A DNA stretch of 64,000 nucleotides, taken from the NCBI GenBank assembly GCA_023229435.1, contig JALNZF010000013.1, positions 10,433 to 74,432 on the forward strand, written 5' to 3'. A program made the translations under genes and the position numbers. The notes under the pieces were generated by a model. It did not search any database. It worked only from the letters and a program-made list of their open reading frames with translations, and was not told the origin of the DNA. Origin of the DNA: Nitrospirota bacterium. GTDB lineage: Bacteria > Nitrospirota > UBA9217. Shown piece after piece: positions 3,736 to 58,626 of this stretch; the first letter of the stretch is position 1, and the number at the start of each line of letters is the position of its first letter.

Positions 3736-3795
3736 GTGATGCGTGTTCAGGCGTCAGGAGCTTTTCTTCCTACTTCCTACTTCTCAGTCCTCTTC

Positions 3796-4365
3796 TCACT
3801 TGATCCTCTTCGATATGGCCTTGAACTCCTCCGTGCCGGCAACCTTGAGAAGCTGAAACAGCACCGTCTCGGTGCAGGTCACGACGGCGCCCGCCTCGCG
3901 CATGAACTCCATCCCGATCTTCCAGTTCTCCTTGGTGCGGGAGCAGATCGCGTCCTGCACGACATGGACATTGATCCCGCCCCTCAGCAGGCCGACGCAG
4001 GTCTGGAGCACGCAGATGTGCGTTTCCATGCCCGTCAGGATGACGCTCCTTTTCTTATGCCCTTTAAGCTCCTCCAGGAACGCGGGCTGGCCGCAGCAAT
4101 CGAAGGTCATCTTCTCAACCGGGCGGTAGAACGGCAGCGCCTCCCGGATCTCCGGCACGGTCGTGCCGAGCCCCCTGGGATACTGCTCAGTCACCATGAC
4201 CGGCAGGTGGATCATCTTGGCGAGCTCGACCAGGTGCAGGTTGTTCCTGACGACCTTGTCCCTTTCCTTCATGACCGCCGCAAGCTTGTCCTGAATATCA
4301 ACGATCAGAAGGACCGTGTCTTCCTTATCAATAATAAATTTGTCCAATGTCATAATGCGGTCCAT
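3796..4365 (-). CDS. Isochorismatase-family cysteine hydrolase
   Basis: It matches the YcaC/PncA-like family with a catalytic Cys context (MVTEQY...HICVLQT). Confidence 0.85.
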   Translation of the reverse strand: MDRIMTLDKFIIDKEDTVLLIVDIQDKLAAVMKERDKVVRNNLHLVELAKMIHLPVMVTEQYPRGLGTTVPEIREALPFYRPVEKMTFDCCGQPAFLEELKGHKKRSVILTGMETHICVLQTCVGLLRGGINVHVVQDAICSRTKENWKIGMEFMREAGAVVTCTETVLFQLLKVAGTEEFKAISKRIK

Positions 4366-4591
4366 CCTCTCTTGATAGAACCGGTATCAATAAATTGATG
4401 TTATATCTCCGCACATCCCCCTCACCCTACCCTCTCCCCTCGAGGGAGAGGATAATAGAGCATTAACGACAGAACGAGAAGAACAGATAACAATATACTT
4501 TCTTCAATAGGCCGTGGATGGTTCTTATATTCCACACTCCGCATTCCGAATTCTGCATTCGATACCGGCAGCCTGCCGGTCCTCAGACCCC

Positions 4592-5557: not shown

Positions 5558-6627
5558 TGGAACATAACGACATACGTCATAGACTTTCCGAATATATCGA
5601 TGGGTCAGTCACGGGTGAAGAACGGGCGGCGATCGAAACGCACCTCAAGACGTGCCCGCAATGCAGCAGCGCGCTCGATGAGCTTCGGAAAACCATCGGG
5701 CATATCAAGTCCGTCGAAGAGATCGAGCCGCCTGCATGGATGACGCAGAAGATCATGGCAACCATTCGCGACGAAGCAGCGGAGAAAAAAGGCTTCTTCC
5801 ACAGGTTCTTCTTCCCCCTCCGCATAAAGCTTCCGATCCAGGCCATAGCGGTCCTGTTCCTTGCCGTAACCGGGTTCTATATCTATCAGACGGCGGAAAG
5901 ATTTTCTGAAGCCCCAACGCATGAACTTGCAACCCGGAACGAAGCCCCTCCAGTCGGCACTGCACAGGATAAACTTGCCAAATCTGAAAGTCCTGCGCTT
6001 CGCTCAAAGCAGGTCCCGCAAACTCCGGCGTATAAGGCTCTGGACATGAAACAGGGATACGAGACTCCTCCGCCGCCAATGCTGAAAGGCCGGGCTACGG
6101 CGCCGGTCCCCGTACCTGCACAACCGGCAGAACCGCCGATGCGGAAGAAAGATAAAGTCATGGCGGAGCAACCCACTGTCTCGCCGTACGCCGGGGCACC
6201 GTCATTGCCGCAGGAACAGACCGCGCCGGCTGCTCATGATCCGGGGCGGGACGAAGGGAGACATGAACCCGCACCCTTGAAACGACAATCCAGCGGTTTG
6301 TCGGCAGGCGAGGGATCAGGCTCAGAGAGCGCTCGTTCAGAGACCATTCTTACCGTATCGGTAAAAAATATTGACGACGCCGCGGAAGATATAGAAGCAA
6401 CGATCAGGGAGTTTGACGGAACCATTATCGAGACACAACAGCTCGATAAGAAAAAAATTTATGTGTTATCGCTGGACACTTCCCATGCAAAAGATCTTGT
6501 AGAAAAACTCAAGCACATGGGAGCCATGAAAGAACAAAATCTGGTTCTGAAATCCCGGGAAAGCCGTATGGTATTCAGAATCGAACTCAACAAACGGTCT
6601 GCGCCTAAGGCGGCTGTGGGATGCTGA
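5557..6627 (+). CDS. Anti-sigma factor, zf-HC2 type, single TM, Pro-rich periplasmic linker
   Basis: The start overlaps the sigma stop in an ATGA arrangement. A HxxxCxxC motif (ETHLKTCPQCSS) and one TM segment are present. Confidence 0.7.
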   Translation: MEHNDIRHRLSEYIDGSVTGEERAAIETHLKTCPQCSSALDELRKTIGHIKSVEEIEPPAWMTQKIMATIRDEAAEKKGFFHRFFFPLRIKLPIQAIAVLFLAVTGFYIYQTAERFSEAPTHELATRNEAPPVGTAQDKLAKSESPALRSKQVPQTPAYKALDMKQGYETPPPPMLKGRATAPVPVPAQPAEPPMRKKDKVMAEQPTVSPYAGAPSLPQEQTAPAAHDPGRDEGRHEPAPLKRQSSGLSAGEGSGSESARSETILTVSVKNIDDAAEDIEATIREFDGTIIETQQLDKKKIYVLSLDTSHAKDLVEKLKHMGAMKEQNLVLKSRESRMVFRIELNKRSAPKAAVGC

Positions 6628-18325: not shown

Positions 18326-18477
18326 GACAAGCTCCTTTTCGGGACGATCCAAATTCCAGTCATTCATCTCAAAATCACGATCTACCGCTGAAGCGCGGAG
18401 ACACGGAGAAATGCATATTGAAAATAATTGGACTTTCTCTGCGCCTCGGCGGCCCTGCGGTAAACCTGAGTTGTTGT

Positions 18478-21792: not shown

Positions 21793-22671
21793 CTATCCCG
21801 AGCGTAATTCCGCAAACGGTGATGCGGTCAATGTTTCAACCGGATAGGACCTCCATCCCTCAGGGGAAAGTCTATCAGCGGCGACCCGGCATGCAGCAAC
21901 GGTCTCGAATATGCCGAACACCGTCGGCCCGCTCCCGCTCATGAGGGCACCCAAGGCCCCCTGGTCCAAAAGCGCATCTTTGATCTTGTTTATCACCGGG
22001 TGAACTACTGAGGTCACCTGCTCAAGGTCATTATGGAGCCCCAAGGCGATATTTCGGAGATTAAGCCTTGCAATTTTATTACAGTCGCCTTTTTTTGTCA
22101 ACCCCAAATTTAAGTTTTTGTAGACCCAGGCAGTGGAGGTCTCAAACCCCGGATTGACGAGCAGGACCGGGAAGTGCGGCAACGGTGTCAGCTCGGTGAG
22201 GATTTCTCCCCTCCCCCGCGCAAGGGCCGTCGGCCCGAAGAAAAAAAAGGGCACGTCCATGCCGATCCGGGCGCCGATCTCGGCCAGCCGGTCCCGGTCA
22301 AGTCCAATGCCGAGCAGCCTGTTCAAAGCCATGAGCACGGCTGCGGCATTGCCGCTCCCTCCGCCGAGCCCGGCCGCAACGGGTATGTTTTTTTTGATCT
22401 CGATCGCCAGGCCGGTCTCTTGGCCGGAGATCCTGAGTATTTCCAATGCCGCCTTCCAGGCAATGTTCTCCTCCCCGGATGGCACCGCATGGCTGTCACA
22501 GGACACGCTGACGCCCGATCCGCCGAGCGATACGGTCACCTCGTCGAAGAGCCCCACCATCTGCATCAGCATCTCAACGTCGTGGTACGCATCCGGTCTC
22601 CTGCCGAGCACGGACAGACAAAGGTTGATCTTAGCCGGAGAAAGGAGCGTTATTGTGTTAATGGTAGCCAT
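21793..22671 (-). CDS. ispE: 4-diphosphocytidyl-2-C-methyl-D-erythritol kinase
   Basis: It belongs to the GHMP kinase family (AKINLCLSV..., PVAAGLGGGSGNAAA). Confidence 0.85.
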   Translation of the reverse strand: MATINTITLLSPAKINLCLSVLGRRPDAYHDVEMLMQMVGLFDEVTVSLGGSGVSVSCDSHAVPSGEENIAWKAALEILRISGQETGLAIEIKKNIPVAAGLGGGSGNAAAVLMALNRLLGIGLDRDRLAEIGARIGMDVPFFFFGPTALARGRGEILTELTPLPHFPVLLVNPGFETSTAWVYKNLNLGLTKKGDCNKIARLNLRNIALGLHNDLEQVTSVVHPVINKIKDALLDQGALGALMSGSGPTVFGIFETVAACRVAADRLSPEGWRSYPVETLTASPFAELRSG

Positions 22672-22679
22672 AGAAATCA

Positions 22680-22820
22680 GTGCTCTAAAGTGACTAAAGT
22701 GAACTAAAATGCGCTAAAGTGAGAACTTCTAATCTTATTTTAGGCACTTTAGGCACTTTAGGCACTTTAGGCACTTTAGGCACTTTAGGCACTTTATGAA
22801 TTTTAGGCACTTTTTTCCCC
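22680..22820. repeat. Intergenic composite repeat: inverted arms built of 9-10 bp tandem units (CTAAAGTGN x4 / GGCACTTTA x6-7)
   Basis: Seen directly in the sequence. A homologous element is present at 35590..35712. Confidence 0.8.
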
Positions 22821-22823
22821 TCT

Positions 22824-23606
22824 CTACTTCTCCCGTTCCTCTATCCCCTGATCCGAAAGTGTAAAAACATCGTCAGCCACGGCCACATACATGTCCGCCT
22901 CGGTGTACTCGATCGTGATCGTCACGCCCTTCCCGGGACTCTCTATGACGATTGTCCTGGGCAGGAGAACATGCGATACTTCCTGCATGCGTTCATACCG
23001 TGTCCGGTACACCAGGGTATTCGATTGGTAGAGCTCCTGAACAGCGATCCTGAGCGCCGGCACCAAGTCTGATGAAGGAGGCAGCACGCGGATGCGCCGC
23101 ACCGTGTCCCCCTCAGGCAGTTCGATCACGCAGGCATTGTTCTGCGTGCAGAACACCCGTGCGTCCAAAGGCCGGGTGATCTCCGTGACCATGCCGGAGA
23201 GGATGGCGCAAAGGTCCTTTGCCTCCACGCTCATGCCAAGAAGTCTCTCTATCCCGGCCTGCCCGGGTCTCATGATCCTGTCGTCATCCTGCATGCGCAA
23301 CAACACGTCGTTGCCGTCCCATACGAGCGCGATGAAGGACTGCCCCAGGGGCCCGAAGGCTTCCACCCGGAGCCTGCGCTGGGCGTCGAGCACGATACCC
23401 ACGGTATCGAAAGAACGCTTCACCCCCCGCCTGACCACCTCAACGCTCGCGATCGCCTTAAGCCCGGTGAAGGCCTGACGCTGCTGTTCCAGCGCTTGGA
23501 CGAGCGGGCCGGCAGGGACCTCGGTGCCGGGGATCCCGGGTTTTTTCGGGAGACAGGAGAACAGGAACAAAACAACGATGAGGACGATGATCCGGCGGGT
23601 CTTCAC
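22824..23606 (-). CDS. LolB-like outer-membrane lipoprotein (DUF4292-like)
   Basis: It has a lipobox (LFSC). Its position immediately upstream of ispE matches the conserved lolB-ispE-prs order. Confidence 0.55.
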   Translation of the reverse strand: MKTRRIIVLIVVLFLFSCLPKKPGIPGTEVPAGPLVQALEQQRQAFTGLKAIASVEVVRRGVKRSFDTVGIVLDAQRRLRVEAFGPLGQSFIALVWDGNDVLLRMQDDDRIMRPGQAGIERLLGMSVEAKDLCAILSGMVTEITRPLDARVFCTQNNACVIELPEGDTVRRIRVLPPSSDLVPALRIAVQELYQSNTLVYRTRYERMQEVSHVLLPRTIVIESPGKGVTITIEYTEADMYVAVADDVFTLSDQGIEEREK

Positions 23607-25444: not shown

Positions 25445-25622
25445 AGGCGTCTCTCGCAGAGGCGCAGAGCTCACAGAGAAAAGCGCAAAAAATGTTCTTG
25501 TTTAAAATAAATACAAAAAGGTTTGATTTAACTCTGCGAACTCTGCGGATGTCCTAAGTGGCCGCTTTTCTTTCATAGGCTACTGCGAGAAAATTTCCTG
25601 CCATTTTAGAAGAATTTGATTC
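25445..25622. repeat. ~180-bp intergenic palindromic repeat element, copy 1 (CGCAGAG-motif family)
   Basis: It shares its ends and a 49-nt identical core with 29937..30114 (inverted) and with 58487..58626. Confidence 0.8.
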
Positions 25623-28220: not shown

Positions 28221-28257
28221 CAATTCGTCCATGCCAGTAACGATCGACGGGGAATGT

Positions 28258-28412
28258 CAACCGTAAACAGGGTGTTGAAAAACGCTCCGTTTACTCCTTC
28301 GACAATGCTTCGACAGGCTCAGCAGAGCACTCAGGGTGAACGGAGCGGGTACTGATATTATTCGTAGATATTGCGCCTGTCGAACCGCAAAAAGACTTTT
28401 TCAGCAGCCTGT
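28258..28412. repeat. MITE-like palindromic element X, copy 1 (terminal ACTTTTTCAGCAGCCTG)
   Basis: It shares a 16-mer terminal repeat and internal motifs with 50345..50477. Confidence 0.6.
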
Positions 28413-28441
28413 AAAGGTCTGGCCCTGATATGCTCTCTGCT

Positions 28442-28726: not shown

Positions 28727-28852
28727 ATGCCATCCTTGAACATGCCTTATCTGTCTGCGGCATGATACTGCGATGTTGTTCTTTTTTCAAGAGCAGGGGC
28801 GGAGACATTTGTGGCGGTTGATTCAGGGTTCAAAGTTCAGGGTTCGGGAGGG

Positions 28853-29936: not shown

Positions 29937-30114
29937 GAATCAAGTTCTTCTCAAAACAGCAAGAATTTTTCTCGCAGTAGCCTATGAAAGAAAAGCGGCC
30001 ACTTAGGACATCCGCAGAGCTCGCAGAGAAAAGCTAAATAAATATTGGTTAAAACTAAGGCTTAAAGGAGTTGATTAACCTCTGCGTGCTCCGCGTGCTC
30101 TGCGAGAGACGCCC
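29937..30114. repeat. ~180-bp palindromic repeat element, copy 2 (inverted relative to copy 1)
   Basis: The reverse complement matches 25445..25622, including the identical 49-mer ctctgcggatgtcctaagtggccgcttttctttcataggctactgcgag. Confidence 0.8.
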
Positions 30115-30115
30115 T

Positions 30116-30820: not shown

Positions 30821-31064
30821 ATCAGCAGAGTAACTCCCTTGTGCGATGAAAATAAGCCGCAGAGATCCGATCGCACTGCTTGCGGATTCAAAGTGCATGC
30901 CCGAATCTCAGCGGACACTATACCATACGGTTTCCCATATTTCAACAGGCCGGTGCTCACCGGTGTTGATGGAAAGCAACGGCCGCCACATTCACCTTCT
31001 GCGTCGGCAATCATCATTCTCTAAAACACAATTCACGGAATATATCGTAGTTCATATGACATCA

Positions 31065-31098
31065 GGTGAAATAACCATGTGAAAGTGGTTATTTCACC
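31065..31098. promoter_or_regulatory. Perfect 13-bp inverted repeat GGTGAAATAACCA-N8-TGGTTATTTCACC in divergent promoter region
   Basis: Seen in the sequence. It lies in an AT-rich (~30% GC) island between ubiE and the small cytochrome-like gene. Confidence 0.5.
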
Positions 31099-31331
31099 AA
31101 TTTTACAGAAATATATTTATCATTTTTCAAATAACTCTTTGTAATATATAAGATCTAAAACTAATAAACCATTGGCATGATCATTGCTTTTTATTAATTA
31201 AATGAGATGTTGTTTTATTACGCCTGCGAAAGGAGGTGGCAACTCTTATAAGGCATCTGTGCCGGAGAATGCTTCTTCTTGTTGTAAATCGGTCCTAACT
31301 TCACAAAACAAACAGGTAAAAGGAGAAAAAA

Positions 31332-31896: not shown

Positions 31897-33267
31897 TTAC
31901 CCTACTATATTAAACTCCCGCACACGGTACTTTGCCCCGAGTTCTTCGGCGATCTTTCGGCAGGCTTCGATGTCCACACCGGGCGCGGAGACCACGGTGG
32001 CTGTCACGTCGGGGATATATTTCTTCGCCTCGCGGATAAATTCCTTGACCGCCTCGTAGGTCGGAGCACCGAACTGGGACTGTGAAATTTTCTCATAGAC
32101 CTCCGCGTTCTGGGCATTCAGGCTAACGCTCACGGCGTCCACCAGCCCGGCCAGCTCAGGCAGCACGTTCCGTTTGTGAATAAGGTTCGCGTGGCCGTTC
32201 GTGTCGATGCGCACCTTGCCGCCGCGCTGCTTCACCTCTGCGGCCACGGCCTTGACCACATCGAGCCGGATCAGCGGCTCTCCGTATCCGCAAAACACGA
32301 CCTCGTCATATCGCTTCGGATCCCCGATCTCCTTGATGAGTTCATCCGCCGATGGCTCTTTGCGCAATCGGAGATTGTGCCCCTTCACAAAATCGGTGTG
32401 ATACCGCACGCAGAACGTGCAAGCCGCGGTGCAGCGGTTCGTGACGTTGAGATAGAGCGCGTTCCGTATGGGATAGGTGATCCGGCCGCGATCGGGCATC
32501 GTGCCGATTCCGAAGAGCTGCATGGCATTGAAGCTTGTGATCCTGGCAACGTCATCGAGGGTGAGCCCCTTGATTGTTGCGACGGCCTCTGCCGTGTGGC
32601 GCACGAAAGCGGGCTCGTTTCTTTTGCCGCGCATCGGTACGGGAGAAAGATAGGGAGCGTCCGTCTCTACCAGCAGGTGCTCGATCGGGATTTGGCGCAC
32701 GACCTCACGCAGGGCCTCCGCCTTGGGGAACGTGATTGGCCCGGCAATGGAAAGGAGGAATCCCCTCTCGATCAATGTTCTTGCCATCTCCACATCACCG
32801 GAAAAGCAGTGCATGACACCGCCGAGCCCGGGCGGCCATTCTTCGGTCAGGATCTGGAGCATATCCTCGTGGGCGTCGCGGTCATGAACGATGATGGGAA
32901 GCTTAAGCTCGCGCGCTTCGCGCAGCATGTCTCGAAATTTTCTTTTCTGGTCCGTGCGGGGAGAATGCTCGTAATGATAGTCGAGCCCGATCTCGCCGTA
33001 GGCCACGACCTTCTGGTGCTGCGCAAAGTGTCTGATGATCTCGTAGGCGGGATGAAGGATGTCCTTCACCTCATGGGGGTGGATGCCGATGGCGGCGTAG
33101 ATGGATTCGTATTTGTCGGCAAGCAGGACCGCGTCACGGCAGGACTCGACCGTCGTGCCGATGGTCACAATATATTCTACGCCCGCTTCGCGCGCCCGTT
33201 TGATCACGTCTTCGCGGTCGTCATTGAACTCGCGCATCTCAAGATGCGCGTGGGTGTCTATCAGCAT
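31897..33267 (-). CDS. TatD-family hydrolase fused to TatD-associated radical SAM domain
   Basis: The N-terminus reads MLIDTHAHLE (TatD). The C-terminus carries CTAACTFC (CX3CX2C). Confidence 0.8.
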   Translation of the reverse strand: MLIDTHAHLEMREFNDDREDVIKRAREAGVEYIVTIGTTVESCRDAVLLADKYESIYAAIGIHPHEVKDILHPAYEIIRHFAQHQKVVAYGEIGLDYHYEHSPRTDQKRKFRDMLREARELKLPIIVHDRDAHEDMLQILTEEWPPGLGGVMHCFSGDVEMARTLIERGFLLSIAGPITFPKAEALREVVRQIPIEHLLVETDAPYLSPVPMRGKRNEPAFVRHTAEAVATIKGLTLDDVARITSFNAMQLFGIGTMPDRGRITYPIRNALYLNVTNRCTAACTFCVRYHTDFVKGHNLRLRKEPSADELIKEIGDPKRYDEVVFCGYGEPLIRLDVVKAVAAEVKQRGGKVRIDTNGHANLIHKRNVLPELAGLVDAVSVSLNAQNAEVYEKISQSQFGAPTYEAVKEFIREAKKYIPDVTATVVSAPGVDIEACRKIAEELGAKYRVREFNIVG

Positions 33268-33612: not shown

Positions 33613-35577
33613 TTATTTTACCCTGCTCCCCGGCTTCATCTCCCGGTCGAAGGTGGCCACGGCAAGCAGGTCCCCGTTGCTCGCGGCGAGCAGCATGCCC
33701 TGGGACTCGATGCCCATGAGCTTGGCAGGCTTCAGGTTCGCCACGATCACGATGGACTTGCCCATGAGCTCCTCGGGAGCATAACTCTTCCCGATGCCGG
33801 CAACCACCTGTCGGGTCTCGGTGCCTATGTCCACGTTGAGTTTTATCAGTTTCGCTGATTTTTCCACCCGCTCGGCGGCAATGATCTTGCCGACCCTGAG
33901 GTCGACCTTCATGAAATCCTCTATGCCGATGGGCTCCGGACCGGCTGCAACAACTGGTGCGGGAGCTGGTTTCTGAATCGCTTCTGTATTTTCCATCTTC
34001 GTCTCCGTGTTCTTGTTCCGATCGATCCTGGGGAATAATTGCGCGCCGGGCTGAATGGCAGTACCGGGCGCCAGCTTTCCCCATTGCTGTTCTTCGTTCA
34101 ACCTGCATGAATCGATTAGCTTCCCCAGGCCGAGAGCGTTCCATATCTTCTGCGACGTAGACGGCATCACCGGGTAGAGGTACAGCCCGATCAGCCTGAG
34201 CGACTCCGAAAGATTATAGAGCACGCTTCCGAGACGCTCCAGGTCCTTGTTCCTTGCGAGCGTCCAGGGCGCGTTTTCTTCCACGTAGCGGTTCGCGCGC
34301 GTCACGAGCGACCACGCCTCGTGAAGATATTTGGTGAACGCGAGCGTTGACAGATTTTCATCGATCCTGGACAGGATCGGCGCGGCGGTCTCGCGCAGTT
34401 CCCGGTCGAACGGCTGTTCGATCCCTGCACCGGGTATCTTTCCGTCAAAGTACTTCCCGATCATCGTCAGTACCCGCGAGAGCAGGTTCCCCAGGTCGTT
34501 CGCCAACTCGGTGTTGAAGCGCGTGACAAAGGTGTCCTTCGAAAAGTCGCCGTCCAGGCCGAAGGGAACTTCCCGCAGCACAAAATAGCGGAACGCGTCG
34601 GCGCCGTAGGCATCGACGACCTCATGCGGGTCGATCACATTCCCGAGCGACTTCGACATCTTTTTGCCGTCCTGCGTCCACCATCCGTGGGCAAAGATGT
34701 TCTCCGGAAGCGGCAGTCCCAGTCCCATCAGCATCGTGGACCAGTACACACTGTGGGTCGTGAGAATGTCCTTGCCGACGAGGTGGTGGTCCGCGGGCCA
34801 CCAGAAGTTTTCCTTCGCGGCCGGGTCCATCGAACCCTGTGCCGGAGGACTCAGATACCGCGTGGCTGAAAGGTAATTCACGAGGGCGTCGAACCAGACA
34901 TAGGTGACAAAATCATGATCGAACGGCAGTTCGATCCCCCAGGCAAGCCGCGCCTTGGGCCGCGAGATGCAGAGATCGCCCAGGGTCTGCGACTTCAGGA
35001 ACCCGAGCACTTCGTTGCGCCGGGAGTCGGGCCGGATATAGTGCGGATTCTGTTCAATATGCGCGATCAGGCGTTCCTGATATTTGCTCATCAGGAAAAA
35101 ATAGTTGCTTTCCGAGATACGCTCCACCGGCCTGCCGCAATCCGGACATTTGCCTTCCACGATCTCCTTCTCGGTCCAGAATCGCTCGTCAGGCGTGCAG
35201 TACCATCCTTCATAGGTCCGTTGCGCTACCTCGCCCTTGTCAAAGAGCTTCTGGAGCAATTCCTGCACCACGGCGACATGTTCCTTGTCGGTCGTGCGGA
35301 TGAAGGCGTCGTTGGTGATCTCAAGCTTTGTCCAGAGCTGCTGGAAGTTCACGGTCATGCTGTCCGCGTGCGCCTTTGGAGTAAGCCCGCGCTCCTGCGC
35401 GGCCTTGGCCACCTTCTGGCCATGCTCGTCCGTGCCCGTGAGAAAGAACACCGCGTCTCCCTTGAGCCGATGGTAGCGCGCAAGCACGTCCGCCGCGATC
35501 GTCGTGTAGGCGTGCCCGATATGCGGCACGTCGTTCACGTAATAGATGGGAGTGGTGATGTAGAATTTTTTCGACAT
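33613..35577 (-). CDS. metG: Methionyl-tRNA synthetase
   Basis: The HIGH motif (PHIGHAYTT), the KMSKS motif and a C-terminal tRNA-binding domain are present. Confidence 0.9.
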   Translation of the reverse strand: MSKKFYITTPIYYVNDVPHIGHAYTTIAADVLARYHRLKGDAVFFLTGTDEHGQKVAKAAQERGLTPKAHADSMTVNFQQLWTKLEITNDAFIRTTDKEHVAVVQELLQKLFDKGEVAQRTYEGWYCTPDERFWTEKEIVEGKCPDCGRPVERISESNYFFLMSKYQERLIAHIEQNPHYIRPDSRRNEVLGFLKSQTLGDLCISRPKARLAWGIELPFDHDFVTYVWFDALVNYLSATRYLSPPAQGSMDPAAKENFWWPADHHLVGKDILTTHSVYWSTMLMGLGLPLPENIFAHGWWTQDGKKMSKSLGNVIDPHEVVDAYGADAFRYFVLREVPFGLDGDFSKDTFVTRFNTELANDLGNLLSRVLTMIGKYFDGKIPGAGIEQPFDRELRETAAPILSRIDENLSTLAFTKYLHEAWSLVTRANRYVEENAPWTLARNKDLERLGSVLYNLSESLRLIGLYLYPVMPSTSQKIWNALGLGKLIDSCRLNEEQQWGKLAPGTAIQPGAQLFPRIDRNKNTETKMENTEAIQKPAPAPVVAAGPEPIGIEDFMKVDLRVGKIIAAERVEKSAKLIKLNVDIGTETRQVVAGIGKSYAPEELMGKSIVIVANLKPAKLMGIESQGMLLAASNGDLLAVATFDREMKPGSRVK

Positions 35578-35589
35578 GGCTTCGCTGTG

Positions 35590-35712
35590 CGTTAAAGTGA
35601 CTAAAGTACATTAAAGTGTCTAAAGTACGTTAAAGTGAATGAAGTGATCCTTCCAACTTTAGGCATTTTAGTCACTTTATGAATTTTAGGCACTTTTCTT
35701 CCCTCTCTACTT
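35590..35712. repeat. Second copy of the TAAAGTG/CACTTTA composite inverted-arm repeat
   Basis: It shares taaagtgactaaagt, cactttatgaattttaggcactttt and tccctctctactt with 22680..22820. Confidence 0.8.
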
Positions 35713-35713
35713 T

Positions 35714-36940
35714 CTACGCCGTCCCCTGCGGCGGTTTGTTCTCGCCCTGCTGCCCTTTCTTTTTTTTGCGCCAGAACTTGCGTCTTTTCTTCCGCGCGGA
35801 CGCGGTTCCTTCCTGCTGCTGCGGCTGGGCGTTCTGGTCCTGTTGCTGCAAAGGATGCTCTTCCGGCTTTGGCTGCTGACTTTCCCTTGATAGCTCCGGC
35901 TTCGGCTGCTGACCTTCCCTGGACAGATCCGGCTTCGGCTGCTGCGCCTTCTTTTCCTGCCGCTGGTCCTTCTTTCTTTCAGGCCTGCCGTAGACCTTCT
36001 GGCCGCCTTCCCGCTGTTTGTCGCGCCGCTGATCCTGCTGCTTGCGGTCCTCCTGGTGTCTTTTCTCCTCTACAGCCCGGCTCTCGTCGGCTTCCTGTCG
36101 TTCCTCGGTGATCCGCAGTTCCTCTCCGAGCCTCTTTTCCGTGGCCGCGGCCTCGCGCATGCCTGCGAGGTCCTTCTTGTTCTCATCGTACATCCCAAAC
36201 TCATAGGAGAGACAACAGAGCAGCCTGCCGCAGACCCCGGAGATTTTTGCCGGATTCAATATCATTTCCTGTTTCTTGGCCATCCGGATCGAGACCGGCT
36301 CGAAGTTCTTCAGGAACGCCGAACAACAAAGCTCCCTGCCGCAGGGGCCGAACCCGCCGATCATGCGCGCAACGTCCCGGACGCCGATCTGGCGCATCTC
36401 GATCCTGCTCTTGAGCTTATGCGCCAGGTCCTTTACCAACTCGCGGAAGTCAACCCTGGTCTCGGAGAAAAAGAAAAAGGTGGCACGCGCGGCATCAAAG
36501 GAATATTCCGCGCGGATAAGCCTCATCGGCAATTCCCGCTCGGTGATCATGATCTGTGCAACGCTGAACGCCTCGGCTTCGCGCGCGCGGTTCTTCTTTT
36601 CCCGGACAAGGTCCTCTTCCGTTGCCTTGCGAAGTACCTTTCGCAACCCTCGTGACGGCTTGACCGCGGGCGGAGAAGACGCGGCTTCGGCCGGAGTGAT
36701 TATCTCCTCGCCATCGATCCGCAGTTCTTCTTCCTGCCAGACCCGGGGGGACGATTCTACGGCGGGCGGATCCTGTGTCCTCCTGAGACGGACCACATGA
36801 GCAATATCCAGTCCACGGTCGGAGTCGATGATCACCTTGTCGCCCACGGCAACATCAATAATGTCCGTTGCGTCGAAATCGTACACTTTCCAATTATCAT
36901 GAAAACGTACTCCGGCTATCCTTATCATAGTGTCTGTCAT
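35714..36940 (-). CDS. PSP1 C-terminal domain protein (RicT/YaaT-like) with low-complexity Q/K/E/P-rich tail
   Basis: A PSP1 domain is present. Its position between holB and metG matches the B. subtilis yaaT context. Confidence 0.8.
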   Translation of the reverse strand: MTDTMIRIAGVRFHDNWKVYDFDATDIIDVAVGDKVIIDSDRGLDIAHVVRLRRTQDPPAVESSPRVWQEEELRIDGEEIITPAEAASSPPAVKPSRGLRKVLRKATEEDLVREKKNRAREAEAFSVAQIMITERELPMRLIRAEYSFDAARATFFFFSETRVDFRELVKDLAHKLKSRIEMRQIGVRDVARMIGGFGPCGRELCCSAFLKNFEPVSIRMAKKQEMILNPAKISGVCGRLLCCLSYEFGMYDENKKDLAGMREAAATEKRLGEELRITEERQEADESRAVEEKRHQEDRKQQDQRRDKQREGGQKVYGRPERKKDQRQEKKAQQPKPDLSREGQQPKPELSRESQQPKPEEHPLQQQDQNAQPQQQEGTASARKKRRKFWRKKKKGQQGENKPPQGTA

Positions 36941-37004
36941 CGGTTTTCTCTATTCCACCTTTTATCTTCTGACTTCTTACTCCTTACTCCTGACTTTTTC
37001 TCCA

Positions 37005-38036: not shown

Positions 38037-38119
38037 ATTGTCCGCAGATTACGCAGATTTCACAGATTAACATAAACCTGAATTTTGCTTTTAAAATCTG
38101 CGTCCATCTGCGAAATCTG
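38037..38119. repeat. Palindromic element with tandem CGCAGAT units in inverted arms
   Basis: The left arm tccgcagattacgcagatttcacagatt pairs with the right arm aatctgcgtccatctgcgaaatctgcgga. The architecture matches the other repeat families. Confidence 0.7.
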
Positions 38120-38170
38120 CGGATAGAAAGGTTTTTCTCTGATGTAACGCTCTTCTGGGTTCAGATTTTA

Positions 38171-44047: not shown

Positions 44048-44118
44048 TGGAATGCCCTGTCAATCCTTTCCCCTTGCTCCAAGCCTCCTGACCCCCGAAC
44101 CTCGAACCCTGAACCCTT

Positions 44119-50231: not shown

Positions 50232-50344
50232 AGAGGATAATTTATTACAAAATGCCGGTTATTACAACAAGAAAACGGGGATACCCTGACGCACCGGGGA
50301 GAACATAGCATGAATCGGATACAAATATTTTTTGTAACTGCTTA

Positions 50345-50477
50345 GCAGGCTGCTGAAAAAGTCGTTAGAGTGGTTCGACAAGCTCACCACGAACGGTTAA
50401 AGAATAACAATTTCAATGCCCGTTCCGTTCGCCCTGAGCTTGTCGAAGGGTAAACGGAACGTTTTTCAGCAGCCTGT
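50345..50477. repeat. MITE-like palindromic element X, copy 2 (TIR caggctgctgaaaaagtcg / cgtttttcagcagcctg with nested inner palindromes)
   Basis: Seen in the sequence. Confidence 0.65.
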
Positions 50478-50623
50478 TAGAACCTTAAAACCTGTCAGGA
50501 GAAAGGGGGGAGAAACTTGGGGAAAGGGAAAAAAGGGAGTTCTTTTATTTAAGTCGTTCATCCCCCCCCTTCGCCTCTTAATTCCCCATTTCTCCTGACA
50601 CATTCTGTCATCCTGTCAAAGGG

Positions 50624-52150
50624 TCACGGTCTTGCGAAGAACGCGGCATGGTTGGAGGTAAATATCGGGGGGTCGTTTTTCAGGATCGCCGAGACAGCGG
50701 AGTGCTTTTTAAATTCATTGTCAAGGAAATGCCGCACCGCTCTTCGGTCCCATCCGTGAAGATGCTTGAAAGCCGTATAGAGCGACAGGTCCCCCTCATA
50801 GAAGTGTTCGGTCACATGCTCCCGTGCCTCATGCCCGCAGAGCGGCATGTTAAAGATCGCAAGATTCAGGAATGTGATCGCCTCGCGGTGAGCGGCAACG
50901 AATTCGAGCGTCTTTCGCGCCTCCCTGATCGTCTCGGCCGGAGTGCCGAAGAGAAGATAGACATAAGCGGCGATCCCGGCCGCATGAAGATTTTTCAATA
51001 CCAGCGACGCTGTCGCGAGATCGATCCCCTTCCGCAACCTATCGAGAACCCCCTGGTCGCCTGATTCCAGACCGAGCTTCAGCATCCTGCATCCCGATCG
51101 TTTCAGCTGCATGCAATAATCACGGTCCGTCAGCTCGTTGCCGATCCTCGCGAAACCATACCACGGGACTCCGGGGGGCTCGTTCGCAAGCGCACGCATG
51201 AGAGCGGGACTGATCGCATTGTCCAGCAGATGGACCAGTATTGGATCCGTTTTCGCGATCAGCGTTTTGAGATCACTCATCGCCAGTTCCGTGGGGACCG
51301 GGACATAGGGAGTTTCCTCCGCTGTTTCCGGACAGAAGGAGCATTTGTTCCAATAGCATCCGCTCGACGCGCTGTAGGGCAGAATGAATCCCGGGGACAG
51401 ATACTCTTCATGAGGCAGGGAGCCATAGTCCGGCGTGACATGCGGATGACCGTTCTCTTTGACGCCGAGCAGTTCGAGCAGCGGCCCCTCTCCCGGGCCG
51501 GCGATACAATGATCGACCAAGCCGCCAAACGGGTCCTTCCACGCCGGACCTTTCATCCAGGAGGTCACCAGGCCGCCGCCGAGAACGATCTTGAGACCGG
51601 GGAACTCGCGCCTGATGAAGCCGATCATGGCGAAGGTACTGAGCGCCTGGCTTAGATAGTTCAATGAAAAACCGATTAGCGGTGGACCGGTTTCTGTAAT
51701 GATCTCCAGCAATCGGACTTTGAAATAAGGATAGAACGGATTCTGTTCCGGATGCTGGGCGGCATTGATCAGGTCATTGCTCCGCACGGGAGAAAGCTGC
51801 TGATGGTGATAATCCGCCAGGCCGAGGATCGCGTGAAACTCCCTCGCAGAGGCCTCGAGCACGCGGTTCACGTCTTTTACGGCCCTGCTGTAGTGGTCCG
51901 GAGAACGATAGGTCCGCGGGTCGCGGAGCGACGCGAGATTGGATGAACTATTTTTAACCGCCCGCCGGGTCCAGGTATCTGAGGCGGTCTGCGGCTTCCG
52001 CATGAGGGAGAGAAGGCCCTCGAGATTCGCGTCCAGGACCGAGCAGGATATTCCCTGCGCGTTAAGCGCGCCCGCGAGTTTCGCTATGCCCGCAGGAGGT
52101 TCACAGGGTTTTGCCGCCGGAGGAAAGATAAGGAGCATGGGGTACCCCAA
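50624..52150 (-). CDS. B12-binding-domain radical SAM protein
   Basis: An N-terminal B12-binding-like domain is followed by a Cys triad SGCYWNKCSFC. The spacing reads as CX4CX2C. Confidence 0.7.
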   Translation of the reverse strand: MGYPMLLIFPPAAKPCEPPAGIAKLAGALNAQGISCSVLDANLEGLLSLMRKPQTASDTWTRRAVKNSSSNLASLRDPRTYRSPDHYSRAVKDVNRVLEASAREFHAILGLADYHHQQLSPVRSNDLINAAQHPEQNPFYPYFKVRLLEIITETGPPLIGFSLNYLSQALSTFAMIGFIRREFPGLKIVLGGGLVTSWMKGPAWKDPFGGLVDHCIAGPGEGPLLELLGVKENGHPHVTPDYGSLPHEEYLSPGFILPYSASSGCYWNKCSFCPETAEETPYVPVPTELAMSDLKTLIAKTDPILVHLLDNAISPALMRALANEPPGVPWYGFARIGNELTDRDYCMQLKRSGCRMLKLGLESGDQGVLDRLRKGIDLATASLVLKNLHAAGIAAYVYLLFGTPAETIREARKTLEFVAAHREAITFLNLAIFNMPLCGHEAREHVTEHFYEGDLSLYTAFKHLHGWDRRAVRHFLDNEFKKHSAVSAILKNDPPIFTSNHAAFFARP

Positions 52151-52186
52151 TCAGTCGGATCTGTCTGATCCGACGGATCCGACGGA

Positions 52187-53491
52187 TTACTTCCTCTTCG
52201 ACTCGATCAATGCCTGAACAGGCTTGAGGCTGTAGGGACTTCCATGCTCTATTGCCGTGAGCACTGTGCCGCCGCCGGTGAAGAAGTAGTAGCTCGCGTT
52301 GTCCATCACCGAAAGATAGAGGCCCGGCAGGAGGTTCTTGAATTCCTGAAGGGTGTCTCCGCCTCCGTACATTTTCATGGCATCGCGGTTAAGGTCTATG
52401 GTGTTGTCGAGCGCCTGGGAACCGGAGGAAAAGTGCGGAGTGTACCCCATGACGGCATTCACGAAGATCGTCTTCGCCGTGCCGATGGCGTCGGCAACGG
52501 TCTTTTCCTCGAATGACCGGGGGTCGATGTCAAGGATGTACCCGTACGAATCGCCGGCCTTGAAATCATGCAGCGAGATGGTCCGGTACCTGCCTTCGAT
52601 CCTTCCGTCCATGGTGTCCGATTCCACGACAAAGGGAAGCTCGACGATCTTTTTCTGGAGACGGTCCTTTGCAACCAGTTCCTGCGCGAGCGCGCAGTCC
52701 TCATCCGAAACGCCCTTAATCCGCACCCGGTACTTTGCGCAGAGATAGGTATTGTAAATGACGCCGCCGAGCACGAGACGGTCCACCTTTTCATACAGGG
52801 CGGTGAGCGGCTTGATCTTGGTGTCGTATTTCGATCCCGCGACCACGGCGAGGAAGGGCCGCTCGGGACTCATGACCCCCTCAAGGTGCGTGATCTCCTG
52901 CTGAAGGAGGAAGCCGGCATAGGACGGCAGGTGCCGGGTGATGTCGAACGTGGAGGCATGGGGCTGCCACGAACCGAACGCGTCGTTCACGTAGATATCG
53001 GCCAGGCCGGCAAGCTGGAGCGCGAAACGCTCCCGGAGCTCTCCCTCGGCCTCTTCCCCGAGGAACCACCGCGAGTTCGGAAGATAGATCCCCCCGATCT
53101 TCCGCTCTTTCAGCTCCCTGACGGCAAGGTTGATGGACGTGTCGATCCCCGTAATGCCTTGCACCGGGTCCGGGGGGAATTTCGGGACATACAATTTTGT
53201 ATGGAGCTTCTGTTCAAGATACCGTACGATGGGCTCGACGGACTCCTCGGGTCTGCAGGTTATCGTTCCCGTCTTTTTGTCTTTCGGCCTGCCCACATGG
53301 GTCATCATGATGGGCCTGCCGCCGCGCTCGACAATGTGAAAGAGGGTCCCGATGGTACGGTCGATCCGATAGGGGTCGCGTATCTCTCCCCCCTTTACGA
53401 CATTGTGATCGAACCGGACAAGGACGACCTTCCCGTCGAGATCGGCATCCTGGATCAACGGCAATTCAGCGTGTAATGGTCTGCTCAGCAT
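52187..53491 (-). CDS. pgk: Phosphoglycerate kinase (divergent, long form)
   Basis: The motifs VLVRFDHNV, HVGRPK, NDAFGSWQPHAST and YFFTGGGTVL match PGK. Confidence 0.65.
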   Translation of the reverse strand: MLSRPLHAELPLIQDADLDGKVVLVRFDHNVVKGGEIRDPYRIDRTIGTLFHIVERGGRPIMMTHVGRPKDKKTGTITCRPEESVEPIVRYLEQKLHTKLYVPKFPPDPVQGITGIDTSINLAVRELKERKIGGIYLPNSRWFLGEEAEGELRERFALQLAGLADIYVNDAFGSWQPHASTFDITRHLPSYAGFLLQQEITHLEGVMSPERPFLAVVAGSKYDTKIKPLTALYEKVDRLVLGGVIYNTYLCAKYRVRIKGVSDEDCALAQELVAKDRLQKKIVELPFVVESDTMDGRIEGRYRTISLHDFKAGDSYGYILDIDPRSFEEKTVADAIGTAKTIFVNAVMGYTPHFSSGSQALDNTIDLNRDAMKMYGGGDTLQEFKNLLPGLYLSVMDNASYYFFTGGGTVLTAIEHGSPYSLKPVQALIESKRK

Positions 53492-53713
53492 GGTGGACCG
53501 CCTTTATCACATTCGGGAATAAACGACAACCGTATTATAGCATATTGTGTAAAACGTTTGACGAATGAAACAACTTCAAATACGGTCTCACACGAAGACA
53601 CGGAGACACGAAGAAAGAAAAAGGCAATGCATGTTTTCTTTGTGGCTTTGTGGCTTCGTGTGAAAATAAATCCCTTTTGGTTCGGGATTAACAGGGTCAC
53701 GGCGGGCATTGCA

Positions 53714-55373: not shown

Positions 55374-55436
55374 CGTCCCTCGTCCCTCGTCCGTCGTCCT
55401 ACGTCTCTCGTCCCACGTCCCTCGTCCCTCGTCTCT
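55374..55436. repeat. Tandem heptanucleotide array, 9 units of CGTCCCT (minus strand GGGACGA)
   Basis: Seen in the sequence. It lies in the emrA-emrB intergenic spacer, immediately after the emrA stop. Confidence 0.85.
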
Positions 55437-56354
55437 TTATTTCGCAAGAACCGTCGGCTCCACGGACATTCCGATCCTGAGGACATGGTCCTTGTCCGCG
55501 CCCGGATCAAGCACGATCTTGATCGGGATGCGCTGGACGACCTTCACGTAGTTGCCTGTGGCGTTCTCAGCCGGGAAGAGAGAAAAGGACACCCCGGTCC
55601 CGGCCATGATACTGTCCACTTTCCCCGTGAAGACCTTGTCGGGGTAGGCATCCACCTTGAGCCTCACCTCCTGGCCGGGCCGGATGCGCCCAAGCTCGGT
55701 TTCCTTGTAGTTTGCTACAACTGTGAGGTTTTCTAGAGAAACTATGGCCATAAGTAGCTGCCCTGCTTGAATATGATTACCTGTCAGGATCGCTATCTTA
55801 GTAGCATACCCGTCCGCCGGGGCTCTCAGCACCGTATAACTAAGGTTTAATTCAGCCTGACGGAGCTGCTCTTCGGCAAGTTTCACCTGGGACACAGCTA
55901 TCTCTTGGGTCGAAACAGCTTTATCATATCGGTCGGCTGAGTTCGTCTTGCTTTCAAACAGAGCCTTGGCTCGTTTTAGCTCCCGCTCCGCTTGACGAAG
56001 AATGGCGCGCTGAAGCTCCAGGTTCGCCCGTGCCGCTTCACTTCGAGACCTATAATCCTGCGGGTCGAGATCAACGAGCAGGTCGTCCTTTTTTACCTGT
56101 TGGTTGGAGTTCACGTAAAGTGATTTGACGGTCCCGCTGATCCGCGCCGAGATGGTGTGGATGTTGCCGTCGATAAAGGCGTCGTCGGTCGAAACATGCG
56201 TCTTGCGATAGCCGCTGTACAGATACCCTGCGATCAGTCCGATGACCACGATCACTCCGACGATCATAAAGGCTTTTTTCTTTTTCTGTCCGTTGCCTGC
56301 CAGTTCTTCTGCCATGAAATCTCCTTGATGAAAACCGCATAGAGCATGGCGCAT
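55437..56354 (-). CDS. emrA: HlyD-family membrane fusion protein (EmrA-like)
   Basis: It has a single TM segment, a coiled-coil and a beta-barrel domain. The start is uncertain (GTG 56393, ATG 56354 or ATG 56315). Confidence 0.8.
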   Translation of the reverse strand: MRHALCGFHQGDFMAEELAGNGQKKKKAFMIVGVIVVIGLIAGYLYSGYRKTHVSTDDAFIDGNIHTISARISGTVKSLYVNSNQQVKKDDLLVDLDPQDYRSRSEAARANLELQRAILRQAERELKRAKALFESKTNSADRYDKAVSTQEIAVSQVKLAEEQLRQAELNLSYTVLRAPADGYATKIAILTGNHIQAGQLLMAIVSLENLTVVANYKETELGRIRPGQEVRLKVDAYPDKVFTGKVDSIMAGTGVSFSLFPAENATGNYVKVVQRIPIKIVLDPGADKDHVLRIGMSVEPTVLAK

Positions 56355-56452
56355 GGAGCATAGGGTATGGAGCGGAGAGCTACAATGCTTCACCCTCTGC
56401 GTTATGCTCTTTGCCCTATGCGCTCTGCGCTATGCCCTTTGCGCTTTGCGCC

Positions 56453-58411: not shown

Positions 58412-58486
58412 CGGGAACAGCTGCCTGAAGCGTTATGCGTCACGGCACTGTCGGCCCCCTCACCTGACCCGGACAAGCTTGAACCG

Positions 58487-58626
58487 AAAGTCGTCTCTCG
58501 CAGAGGACGCAGAGTTAATTCAAGACCCTTACTTATTTTTTTTAAACCGGAACATTTTTCGATTTTCTCTGCGAACTCTGCGTCTCCGCGAGAAAATTTC
58601 TTGCCGATTTAAGAAGAATTTGATCC
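58487..58626. repeat. CGCAGAG-family palindromic repeat element, copy 3 (lacks the 36-nt internal insert)
   Basis: It aligns end-to-end with copies 1 and 2. Confidence 0.75.

Follow-up and report, generated by a model that had tools for sequence, protein, structure and literature searches.

Intergenic arrays of tandem heptamers have been on record since 1990 and continue to serve in strain typing; the heptamers of heterocystous cyanobacteria known as short tandemly repeated repetitive (STRR) sequences reportedly go back to work by Mazel in that year. Several related kinds of array have been described. Long simple sequence repeats (Mrazek 2007) are taken here as they are summarised in PMC4679880, and the TAACTGA direct repeats of Beggiatoaceae, Cyanobacteria and Bacteroidetes occur in 169 direct sets versus one inverted set (MacGregor 2015, PMC4679880). 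In Geobacter metallireducens, paired sites of tandem repeats have been reported under the name 'global regulator binding sites', classes 1–3 (PMC2700814), and Xanthomonas carries convergent GGGAATC repeat pairs for which no regulatory role was found (PMC4692102). A 2022 preprint proposed for the heptamers of Nostoc a role with an 'unidentified interacting partner' and reported that those upstream of recF and recO affect reporter expression, and papers on heptamer repeats propose, or call for, a repeat-binding protein. The intervening sequences (IVSs) of rRNA, which RNase III excises, are selfish elements with complementary sequences at their borders and occur with or without an open reading frame (ORF) for the S23p protein (PMC4990558). 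Genes of the corresponding family, PF05635, have been noted inside cas loci without mention of repeats (PMC3936711), and PF05635 or S23p goes unmentioned in the Geobacter and Xanthomonas papers (PMC2700814 and PMC4692102). Here we analyse two homologous elements of about 130 nt each, upstream of ispE and of metG, in a 64,000-nt stretch (hereafter the window) of a Nitrospirota contig (JALNZF010000013.1; within the 102-kb contig k141_12111 of the metagenome sample ERZ27247322 in ENA).

The elements are a Nitrospirota, TAAAGTG-unit member of the already known paired tandem-repeat hairpins. The same arms, with the same polarity relative to the host genes, enclose small PF05635 genes elsewhere, and the full and gene-less forms co-occur in the same lineage. 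Because the sequence of the arms, their order and their orientation to the host operon match this cassette, and because the loops resemble the ends of its ORF, we consider it probable, if only just, that both window elements belong, as gene-less ('hairpin-only') forms, to an IVS-like cassette family that spreads horizontally. That paired tandem-repeat hairpins are the flanks of an IVS-protein gene cassette has apparently not been reported; a full-text search, whose coverage excluded most subscription journals and which is thus no proof of novelty, found no literature link between STRR or other tandem arrays and PF05635 genes.

We compared the two elements using Tandem Repeats Finder (TRF), motif counts and pairwise alignment (Table 1). 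On the gene strand, both begin a few bases from the stop codon of the upstream gene with a purine-rich junction (AAGTAGAGAGGG...), followed by a 5' arm of 9-nt TAAAGTGnn units, a short loop and a 3' arm of CACTTTAGn units. In the 5' arms, AAAAGTGCC and TAAAATTCA precede either six perfect TAAAGTGCC units (element 1) or TAAAGTGAC, TAAAATGCC and TAAAGTTGG (element 2). The 3' arms consist of four to six CACTTTAG units with spacers of 1–2 nt and end 12–14 nt upstream of the next ATG (14 nt for ispE), and the arms are separated by 16 nt in element 1 and 8 nt in element 2. TRF found six perfect TTTAGGCAC units at 22739–22813, and CTAAAGTG occurs eight times in the window, always within element 1, against an expectation of 0.86; none of 100 shuffles reached eight. 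The elements have 25 identical bases, CACTTTATGAATTTTAGGCACTTTT, in common, plus CCCTCTCTACTT. The two loci are thus homologous copies of one element, lying between an upstream stop codon and the start of ispE or metG, as a preliminary description of the window had it. The tail that it saw in both copies is indeed shared, and in element 1 includes the stop codon of the upstream gene (22824–22826). All genes around the elements, holB and tmk among them, are on the minus strand, so that the arm then called left is the 3' arm of the transcript. A unit length of one helical turn, also proposed there, is not general: the periods differ even inside one element (9 versus 9–10 nt), and elements of the same architecture have 7- and 8-nt units.

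The link to PF05635 came from a JGI contig (L020; the contigs compared are given L numbers), which carries a third copy of the element and two small genes, each between inverted arrays: TAAAGTGAC and ACTTTAGTC around one, CGCATAG and CTATGCG around the other. Both genes belong to Pfam PF05635 ('23S rRNA-intervening sequence protein') and NCBIfam TIGR02436 ('four helix bundle protein'), and PDB entry 2RLD is a relative. A first clade comprises five TAAAGTG-flanked genes (Table 1) whose proteins, of about 118 aa, are 74–84% identical to one another; the contig of one of them, L021, has a tetranucleotide correlation with the window of r = 0.90. At these loci, about 4–10 sense TAAAGTG units run up to the ATG and 4–10 CACTTTAG units follow from the stop codon on, the stop codon itself sitting inside the first of them (TCA CTT TAG). 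A second clade (70–89% identity within the clade, 20–34% to the first) has GCGCAKAG-type units upstream and CTMTGCGC-type units downstream in the loci examined, namely the second L020 gene and genes on seven fetched contigs, with four distinct proteins; L027–L030 carry one and the same PF05635 protein.

A tblastn search of finished plasmids found most PF05635 genes in Nostoc, Anabaena and Planktothrix, with others in Bacteroidota, Chloroflexota, Bacillota and Spirochaetota. Tandem units flank all 13 plasmid genes examined, which come from Cyanobacteriota and these four phyla, and the majority of the array pairs are clearly inverted. Nostoc punctiforme has (AATTCGC)x4 before and (GCGAATT)x4 after the gene on pNPUN02, and (AGGTCGG) and (CCGACCT) units on pNPUN01; N. 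flagelliforme has (ATTCAAA)x4 and (TTTTGAA)x4, Gloeocapsa and Chlorohelix have (GATTTTA) flanks, and in Euhalothece the downstream array comprises about a dozen (TCACTGG) units. The operons concerned are of DISARM-like, type I restriction-modification, CRISPR-Cas, DUF1156-HEPN, efflux and polysaccharide kinds. We scored the complementarity of upstream and downstream flanks by local alignment, since an exact-7-mer test missed the degenerate arrays of the second clade. For the first PF05635 genes, the score exceeded the 95th percentile of 201 control genes in 15 out of 18 cases (Mann–Whitney test, P = 5e-10), and exact 7-mers were shared between the flanks of 9/18 PF05635 genes versus 1/201 controls; the single high control gene is one that lies between two cassettes. 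In every PF05635 locus examined, in at least six phyla, the gene and its arrays form one unit. Whole cassettes fold with the two arrays paired as a closing stem (L021, z = -6.6; N. punctiforme, L032, z = -6.1, with a stem of 33 bp).

The loops of the window elements were compared with these genes by eye. That of element 1, with adjacent bases TAAGATTAGAAGTTCTCACTTTAG, resembles both the start context of the L021 gene (cTAAGATGGAGAA) and its last codons (cTTTCACTTTAG, that is L S L stop), with TAAGAT-T-AGAAG...TTCTCACTTTAG in the element versus TAAGAT-G-GAGAA...CTTTCACTTTAG in L021. Element 2 has CTAAAGTTGGAAG, as upstream of the ATG of the first PF05635 gene of L023, and then TCACTTTAA. The loops thus look like what an ORF would leave behind if the stretch from its first codons to its last three were lost, a resemblance that is suggestive only.

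In L026 (ENA ERZ25071401 contig_1, 5.1 Mb), a GCGCAKAG-armed cassette at 1341–1991 lies in a contractile-tail-like cluster, between a Phage_base_V (VgrG/gp5-like) gene and a GPW_gp25 gene. A block of a DUF1156 protein, a PF05635 gene and a Swt1-family HEPN gene is common to L038 (Ca. Chlorohelix plasmid) and L042 (Gloeocapsa PCC 7428 plasmid), with 71% identity between the two PF05635 proteins and flanks of the same GATTTTA type; this block, cassette included, seems to have moved between Chloroflexota and cyanobacterial plasmids.

We further examined the PSP1–metG spacer in relatives, MetG relatives being named Nitrospirota, in which the order tmk-holB-PSP1-metG-tatD is retained. The element is present in L011 (MetG 90.3% identical to that of the window, over a partial sequence), L016 (89.4%) and L019 (79.8%), and absent from L003 (90.8%; a spacer of 72 nt), L004 (87.1%; other heptamer arrays occupy the spacer) and L006 (81.3%). 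The 49-nt 5' arm is 100% identical in all four element-bearing strains, the window included. The 3' arm has 3–5 units in the element-bearing relatives, and the four orthologous spacers differ by indels of 9, 19 and 28 nt, so that the unit number changes between strains in slippage-sized, whole-unit steps; the variability suspected in the preliminary description is therefore real. In sequence, the element is far better kept than the adjoining essential gene, and it does not follow the host gene in its distribution. Together with the unrelated gene contexts described below, its presence and absence in the same spacer mark the distribution as that of a spreading element. A conserved cis-regulatory leader of ispE and metG was rejected on the grounds that the element is missing at the orthologous position in L003, L004 and L006, and an assembly artefact on the grounds that it was independently assembled in ENA, JGI and Logan data, within conserved synteny.

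Copies were also found in other phyla. A 21-mer common to both elements, GTGCCTAAAATTCATAAAGTG, has four exact matches in species-representative genomes, three in one Bacteroidales metagenome-assembled genome (MAG) and one in a Lentimicrobiaceae MAG, where the conserved block spans 21–40 nt, and ten in JGI metagenome contigs with G+C contents of 36–59%. Around every match the similarity continues into more TAAAGT units, and many of these copies are single-armed. The exact 21-mer had no match in IMG/VR. With a three-unit pattern, TAAAGTG arrays were found in six distinct spacers of predicted phage contigs, 4/6 of which end at the start region of an ORF; of the 12 viral matches to this pattern, four were unrelated in-frame coding repeats of the PKV type. 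Element 2 had no blastn match among PLSDB plasmids or INPHARED phages, and a PF05635 protein search of IMG/VR confirmed no relative. It is possible that phages are a vector of the arrays. The elements are thus not chance low-complexity sequence confined to two loci, the outcome that the preliminary description had set against its own reading: copies exist in related strains, at other loci, in other phyla and in phage contigs.

Among the IMG/VR contigs, L048 (13327–13459) and L051 (10510–10615), with G+C contents of 0.38–0.39, contain at least 13 perfect TAAAGTGCC units, the exact unit of the 5' arm of element 1, at the end of the stretch examined. The arrays that end at an ORF start region are in L045, L049, L054 and L056 (G+C 0.54–0.56). 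In the Bacteroidales MAGs L010 (3561–3819) and L018, about 11 copies of a 21-nt unit, TTTTCATGAACGTTGATGAAA, and two copies of a 42-nt unit directly adjoin a one-armed TAAAGTG copy.

The predicted folds of the gene strand reached -52.1 kcal/mol (z = -5.8) for element 1 and -32.7 kcal/mol (z = -2.1) for element 2; both are long hairpins with the arms paired. In Rfam 15, neither element had a family at the gathering score, and permissive thresholds yielded only generic hairpin noise (sub-threshold microRNA precursor matches); the only family at the gathering score anywhere in the window is a tRNA. Scans of both elements for sigma-70 promoters and intrinsic terminators found nothing on the gene strand, and one weak promoter-like match at 35571–35598 is antisense to the genes. 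An intrinsic terminator was rejected, with no terminator-like site in either element and the T run on the antisense strand.

Table 1. Positions of the elements, their parts and host genes, of other paired arrays in the window and of first-clade PF05635 genes on other contigs
Feature	Contig	Position	Strand	Composition and context	Repeat or folding score
Element 1	window	22685–22831	-	between LolB-like gene and ispE
Element 1, 5' arm (gene strand)	window	22739–22813	-	AAAAGTGCC-TAAAATTCA-(TAAAGTGCC)x6-TAAAA, period 9 nt	TRF 8.3 copies, score 129
Element 1, loop	window	22723–22738	-	with adjacent bases, TAAGATTAGAAGTTCTCACTTTAG
Element 1, 3' arm (gene strand)	window	22685–22722	-	four CACTTTAG/CATTTTAG units, 1–2 nt spacers	TRF period 10, 3.9 copies
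Element 1, purine-rich junction	window	22814–22831	-	AAGTAGAGAGGGGAAA on gene strand; holds TAG stop of LolB-like gene (22824–22826)
Element 2	window	35590–35713	-	between PSP1 gene and metG
Element 2, 5' arm	window	35656–35696	-	AAAAGTGCC-TAAAATTCA-TAAAGTGAC-TAAAATGCC-TAAAGT	TRF period 9, 4.6 copies
Element 2, loop	window	35648–35655	-	gene strand ..CTAAAGTTGGAAGGATCACTTCATTCACTTTAA..
Element 2, 3' arm	window	35590–35647	-	five to six CACTTTA/TACTTTA units, period 9–10	TRF period 9/10/19
Element 2, junction	window	35697–35713	-	AAAGTAGAGAGGGAAG, immediately 3' of PSP1 stop codon (35714–35716)
ispE (GHMP kinase)	window	21793–22671	-	downstream of element 1
LolB-like lipoprotein gene	window	22824–23606	-	upstream of element 1; weak Pfam match
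metG	window	33613–35577	-	downstream of element 2
PSP1-domain gene	window	35714–36940	-	upstream of element 2
Gene-less pair, other unit	window	56332–56447	-	GCGCAAAG/GCGCAGAG/GCGCATAG units, then CTATGC/CCATGC units	z = -3.4
Paired array	window	38041–38123	-	tmk–holB spacer; CGCAGATnn units, then nnATCTGCG units	z = -6.2
Paired array, 8-nt units	window	53588–53663	-	ACACGRAG / CTTYGTGG	z = -5.9
Paired array	window	52149–52188		same build, another unit
First-clade PF05635 gene	L020	853–1212
First-clade PF05635 gene	L021	3001–3360		ENA sample ERZ27247322 (the window's own); protein named 'Nitrospirae bacterium' by NCBI
First-clade PF05635 genes	L023			two copies
First-clade PF05635 gene	L024			Ca. 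Scalindua

The window contains further arrays of the same architecture (Table 1). Every fold of the four additional pairs is better than those of shuffles, and the one at 56332–56447 is a gene-less GCGCAKAG/CTMTGCGC pair, of the unit type and polarity found around the second PF05635 clade. Single-sided arrays occupy many more spacers; 19 of the 41 arrays in the window are intergenic, versus 12.3% of the window itself (P = 8e-8, by a crude gene call).

Taken together, these observations are consistent with a full-length cassette of the form [tandem TAAAGTGnn]–PF05635/TIGR02436 gene–[tandem CACTTTAGn], which would insert in the sense direction in operon spacers and of which the window copies would lack the gene, their arms lying 16 and 8 nt apart. 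The elements would be co-transcribed with lolB-ispE and PSP1-metG, and their arms would pair into a long, imperfect double-stranded stem, as in rRNA IVSs, which on the model of those IVSs might be a substrate of RNase III. The main effect on the host would then be cleavage or altered stability of the polycistronic mRNA, and not specific regulation. The arms probably grow and shrink through replication slippage, and dispersed copies of the same unit could serve as homology patches for the recombinational gain or loss of the gene.

Several points weigh against this reading. The PF05635 loci were reached via homologs of two proteins and via plasmid matches, which is no unbiased census. By tblastn, neither the window nor the 22-kb orthologous loci contain a PF05635 gene, so that the elements are linked to the gene by their shared arms and not by adjacency. 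The supposed remnants in the loops are short. One-armed arrays without a PF05635 gene nearby occur in the Bacteroidales MAGs, at 5888–5925 of L020 and in the six phage-contig spacers, which means that arrays can exist and spread without the gene. Element 2 folds just modestly better than shuffles, the unequal periods of the arms introduce bulges into the stems, and no target-site duplication and no recombinase were seen at the loci compared.

The main rival takes the arrays as primary: self-standing hairpins of the STRR or long simple sequence repeat type, born by slippage and quasi-palindrome template switching, in whose loops PF05635 genes nest or home, so that the window copies would be sites that were never occupied and not deletion derivatives. 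We consider this unlikely, while giving it real weight, since, in the DNA examined, copies with the gene are far fewer than one-armed and gene-less ones, arrays occur in phage contigs without the gene, and two PF05635 proteins of N. punctiforme that are 75% identical carry different heptamers, which shows that the arms turn over independently of the protein. However, the protein clade and the arm unit covary across phyla and gene contexts, the first 3' unit incorporates the stop codon of the gene while the sense units abut its ATG, and the window loops look like the contexts of its start and stop, all of which speaks against this rival. The covariation, and the strict linkage of gene and arrays at every locus examined, could also mean that the arrays are DNA or RNA binding sites of the pentameric four-helix-bundle protein, acting in autoregulation, RNA protection or mobility, with gene-less copies served in trans. 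Avd, a related protein of diversity-generating retroelements (DGR), binds nucleic acid, and the heptamer-repeat papers call for a binding partner. Nevertheless, co-inheritance explains the covariation equally well, units differ between the two 75%-identical proteins, and arrays lie in contigs without a PF05635 gene (the remainder of those genomes being unseen), and on this comparison of sequences such a binding role appears improbable.

A host leader, that is, an array of regulator sites or a regulatory hairpin for ispE and metG, is disfavoured and would now be very surprising. The 3' arms do end 12–14 nt before the start codons, where a hairpin could affect ribosome access, and tandem heptamers upstream of recF and recO altered reporter expression in Nostoc (2022 preprint); yet close relatives do not conserve the element in the same spacer, it occurs in unrelated contexts and phyla, no Rfam family fits it, and its gene strand has no promoter- or terminator-like site, the one weak promoter-like match being antisense. 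Of the earlier suggestion of a protein-site array or a regulatory hairpin in the mRNA leader, what stands is that the arms can form a long hairpin as a predicted fold; a leader or binding array dedicated to ispE and metG does not, given the element-free spacers of relatives. Neither gene has an obvious Shine-Dalgarno (SD) sequence, as had been remarked, and this is not tied to the element because metG of L003 lacks an SD sequence in its element-free spacer as well. A conventional miniature inverted-repeat transposable element (MITE) or repetitive extragenic palindromic (REP) element, moved by a transposase or REP-associated tyrosine transposase (RAYT) encoded elsewhere, would account for small, intergenic, multicopy elements with inverted arms and presence/absence polymorphism. 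We nonetheless hold it to be scarcely credible: there are no defined terminal inverted repeats beyond the tandem units, no target-site duplication is visible where either copy begins or ends or between filled and empty spacers (the empty spacers not being alignable), the plasmid and phage collections gave no matches, and the only gene found between the arms is PF05635 and not a transposase.

Other identities for the arrays were tried and rejected. A CIRCE half-site differs by one base (AGTGCCTAA versus GAGTGCTAA), and the units are tandem and not inverted around a gap of 9 nt, and the gene context is wrong. Stacked -10 hexamers (TAAAGT/TAAAAT) lack a -35 partner, and the units of other element families are unrelated. 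A-tract bending at helical periodicity does not agree with periods of 7 to 10 nt, and sponges of GGA sites for a CsrA-type protein fit the GTCAGGA-type arrays, not TAAAGTG.

Other repeats in the window were recorded alongside. One-sided heptamer arrays lie in spacers at 55374–55433, 44087–44117, 28822–28845, 4529–4560, 36972–36995 and 3766–3798, with the heptamers CGTCCCT (x8.6), CCTGAAC (x4.4; its complement TTCAGGG is at another locus), ATTCCGC (x4.6), ACTCCTT (x3.4) and CTTCCTA; the related units GCGGAGT and GTCAGGA occupy orthologous spacers in L003 and L004. A dispersed composite repeat of about 100–150 nt has tandem CGCAGAG/CTCTGCG arms, units of the same family as the flanks of the second PF05635 clade, and a shared unique inner sequence (e.g. 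GGATGTCCTAAGTGGCCGCTTTTCTTTCATAGGCTACTGCGAGAAAA); there are at least four copies in the window (25525–25600, 29975–30115, 58475–58600 and 18400–18445) and one in the metG–tatD spacer of L003 (12010–12140). Nested inverted repeats at 50343–50600 and 28221–28429, with TAGCAGGCTGCTGAAAAA/TTTTTCAGCAGCCTGTTA outside and TTCGACAAGCTCACCACGAACGG/CCGTTCGCCCTGAGCTTGTCGAA inside and related pieces at 28.3–28.4 kb, represent a separate dispersed palindromic family. Near the host genes, a 456-aa ORF (31897–33267, minus strand) fuses a TatD-type DNase/hydrolase domain with a radical SAM domain, a fusion retained in L003, L004 and L006. The 3' part of the PSP1-domain gene contains 2.5 copies of a 33-nt unit (35862–35944; 90% matches) with a strong AT skew, probably a low-complexity C-terminal tail, and an A+T-rich spacer (31000–31300; G+C 0.28–0.31 versus 0.55 for the window) lies beside small ORFs without Pfam matches.

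The link to the cassette may help explain the short tandem repeats of many bacteria. The PF05635 protein is a widespread orphan found inside CRISPR, restriction, DISARM-like and polysaccharide operons, and an IVS-like cassette in mRNA spacers gives a common, testable account of the arrays, in origin and function, and of this protein. In a wider form, the tandem arrays and hairpins of many phyla (STRR, Geobacter, Xanthomonas and the present elements) would be arms or footprints of one unrecognised class of mobile cassette, whose only gene, the pentameric IVS protein, recognises its own repeats and drives their spread, maintenance or RNA processing, with gene-less hairpins as non-autonomous members served in trans; we regard this generalisation as speculative and rather unlikely. 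In practice, such hairpins break short-read assemblies, many PF05635 genes being on contigs of <2 kb that end in arrays, and annotating them as gene-specific regulators is unwarranted.

Compared with MITEs, with REP elements and bacterial interspersed mosaic elements (BIMEs), and with the pneumococcal BOX elements, which have a variable number of internal modules, the elements are likewise small, intergenic, hairpin-forming, dispersed and polymorphic between strains, whereas they show no transposase or RAYT parent and no target-site duplication, and their arms consist of tandem short units. They resemble the STRR and long simple sequence repeats in being intergenic, head-to-tail arrays of units of about 7 nt (within the 5–11 nt range) beyond chance, in many families per genome and with a variable unit number, and heptamers of exactly this kind form the flanks of PF05635 genes on plasmids of Nostoc, Planktothrix and Euhalothece; the difference is that the host is a Nitrospirota bacterium and the unit a 7-nt core with a 2–3 nt spacer. 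Like the TAACTGA repeats (PMC4679880), one unit spans distant phyla with no known vector, is intergenic and often ends at start codons, although those repeats are almost all direct and the present elements are inverted pairs. The Geobacter and Xanthomonas pairs have the same architecture, with three to five tandem 7–9 nt units per strand, inverted, at variable distance and in dozens of copies per genome, and differ in units and hosts. The rRNA IVSs of Leptospira, Coxiella and Salmonella (PMC4990558) lie in rRNA helices 9, 25 or 45, not in the mRNA spacers of protein-coding operons; the stems of the present elements are built of tandem 7–10 nt units, and excision by RNase III is demonstrated for the rRNA IVSs, whereas that of the present elements is presumed. 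In other respects the two agree: both are selfish inserts closed by a long stem of complementary border sequences (predicted here), both are found either carrying a PF05635 ORF or as a stem-loop alone, of about 100–150 nt, the former represented here by the full-length relatives and the latter by the window copies, and both have a sporadic distribution that points to horizontal transfer.

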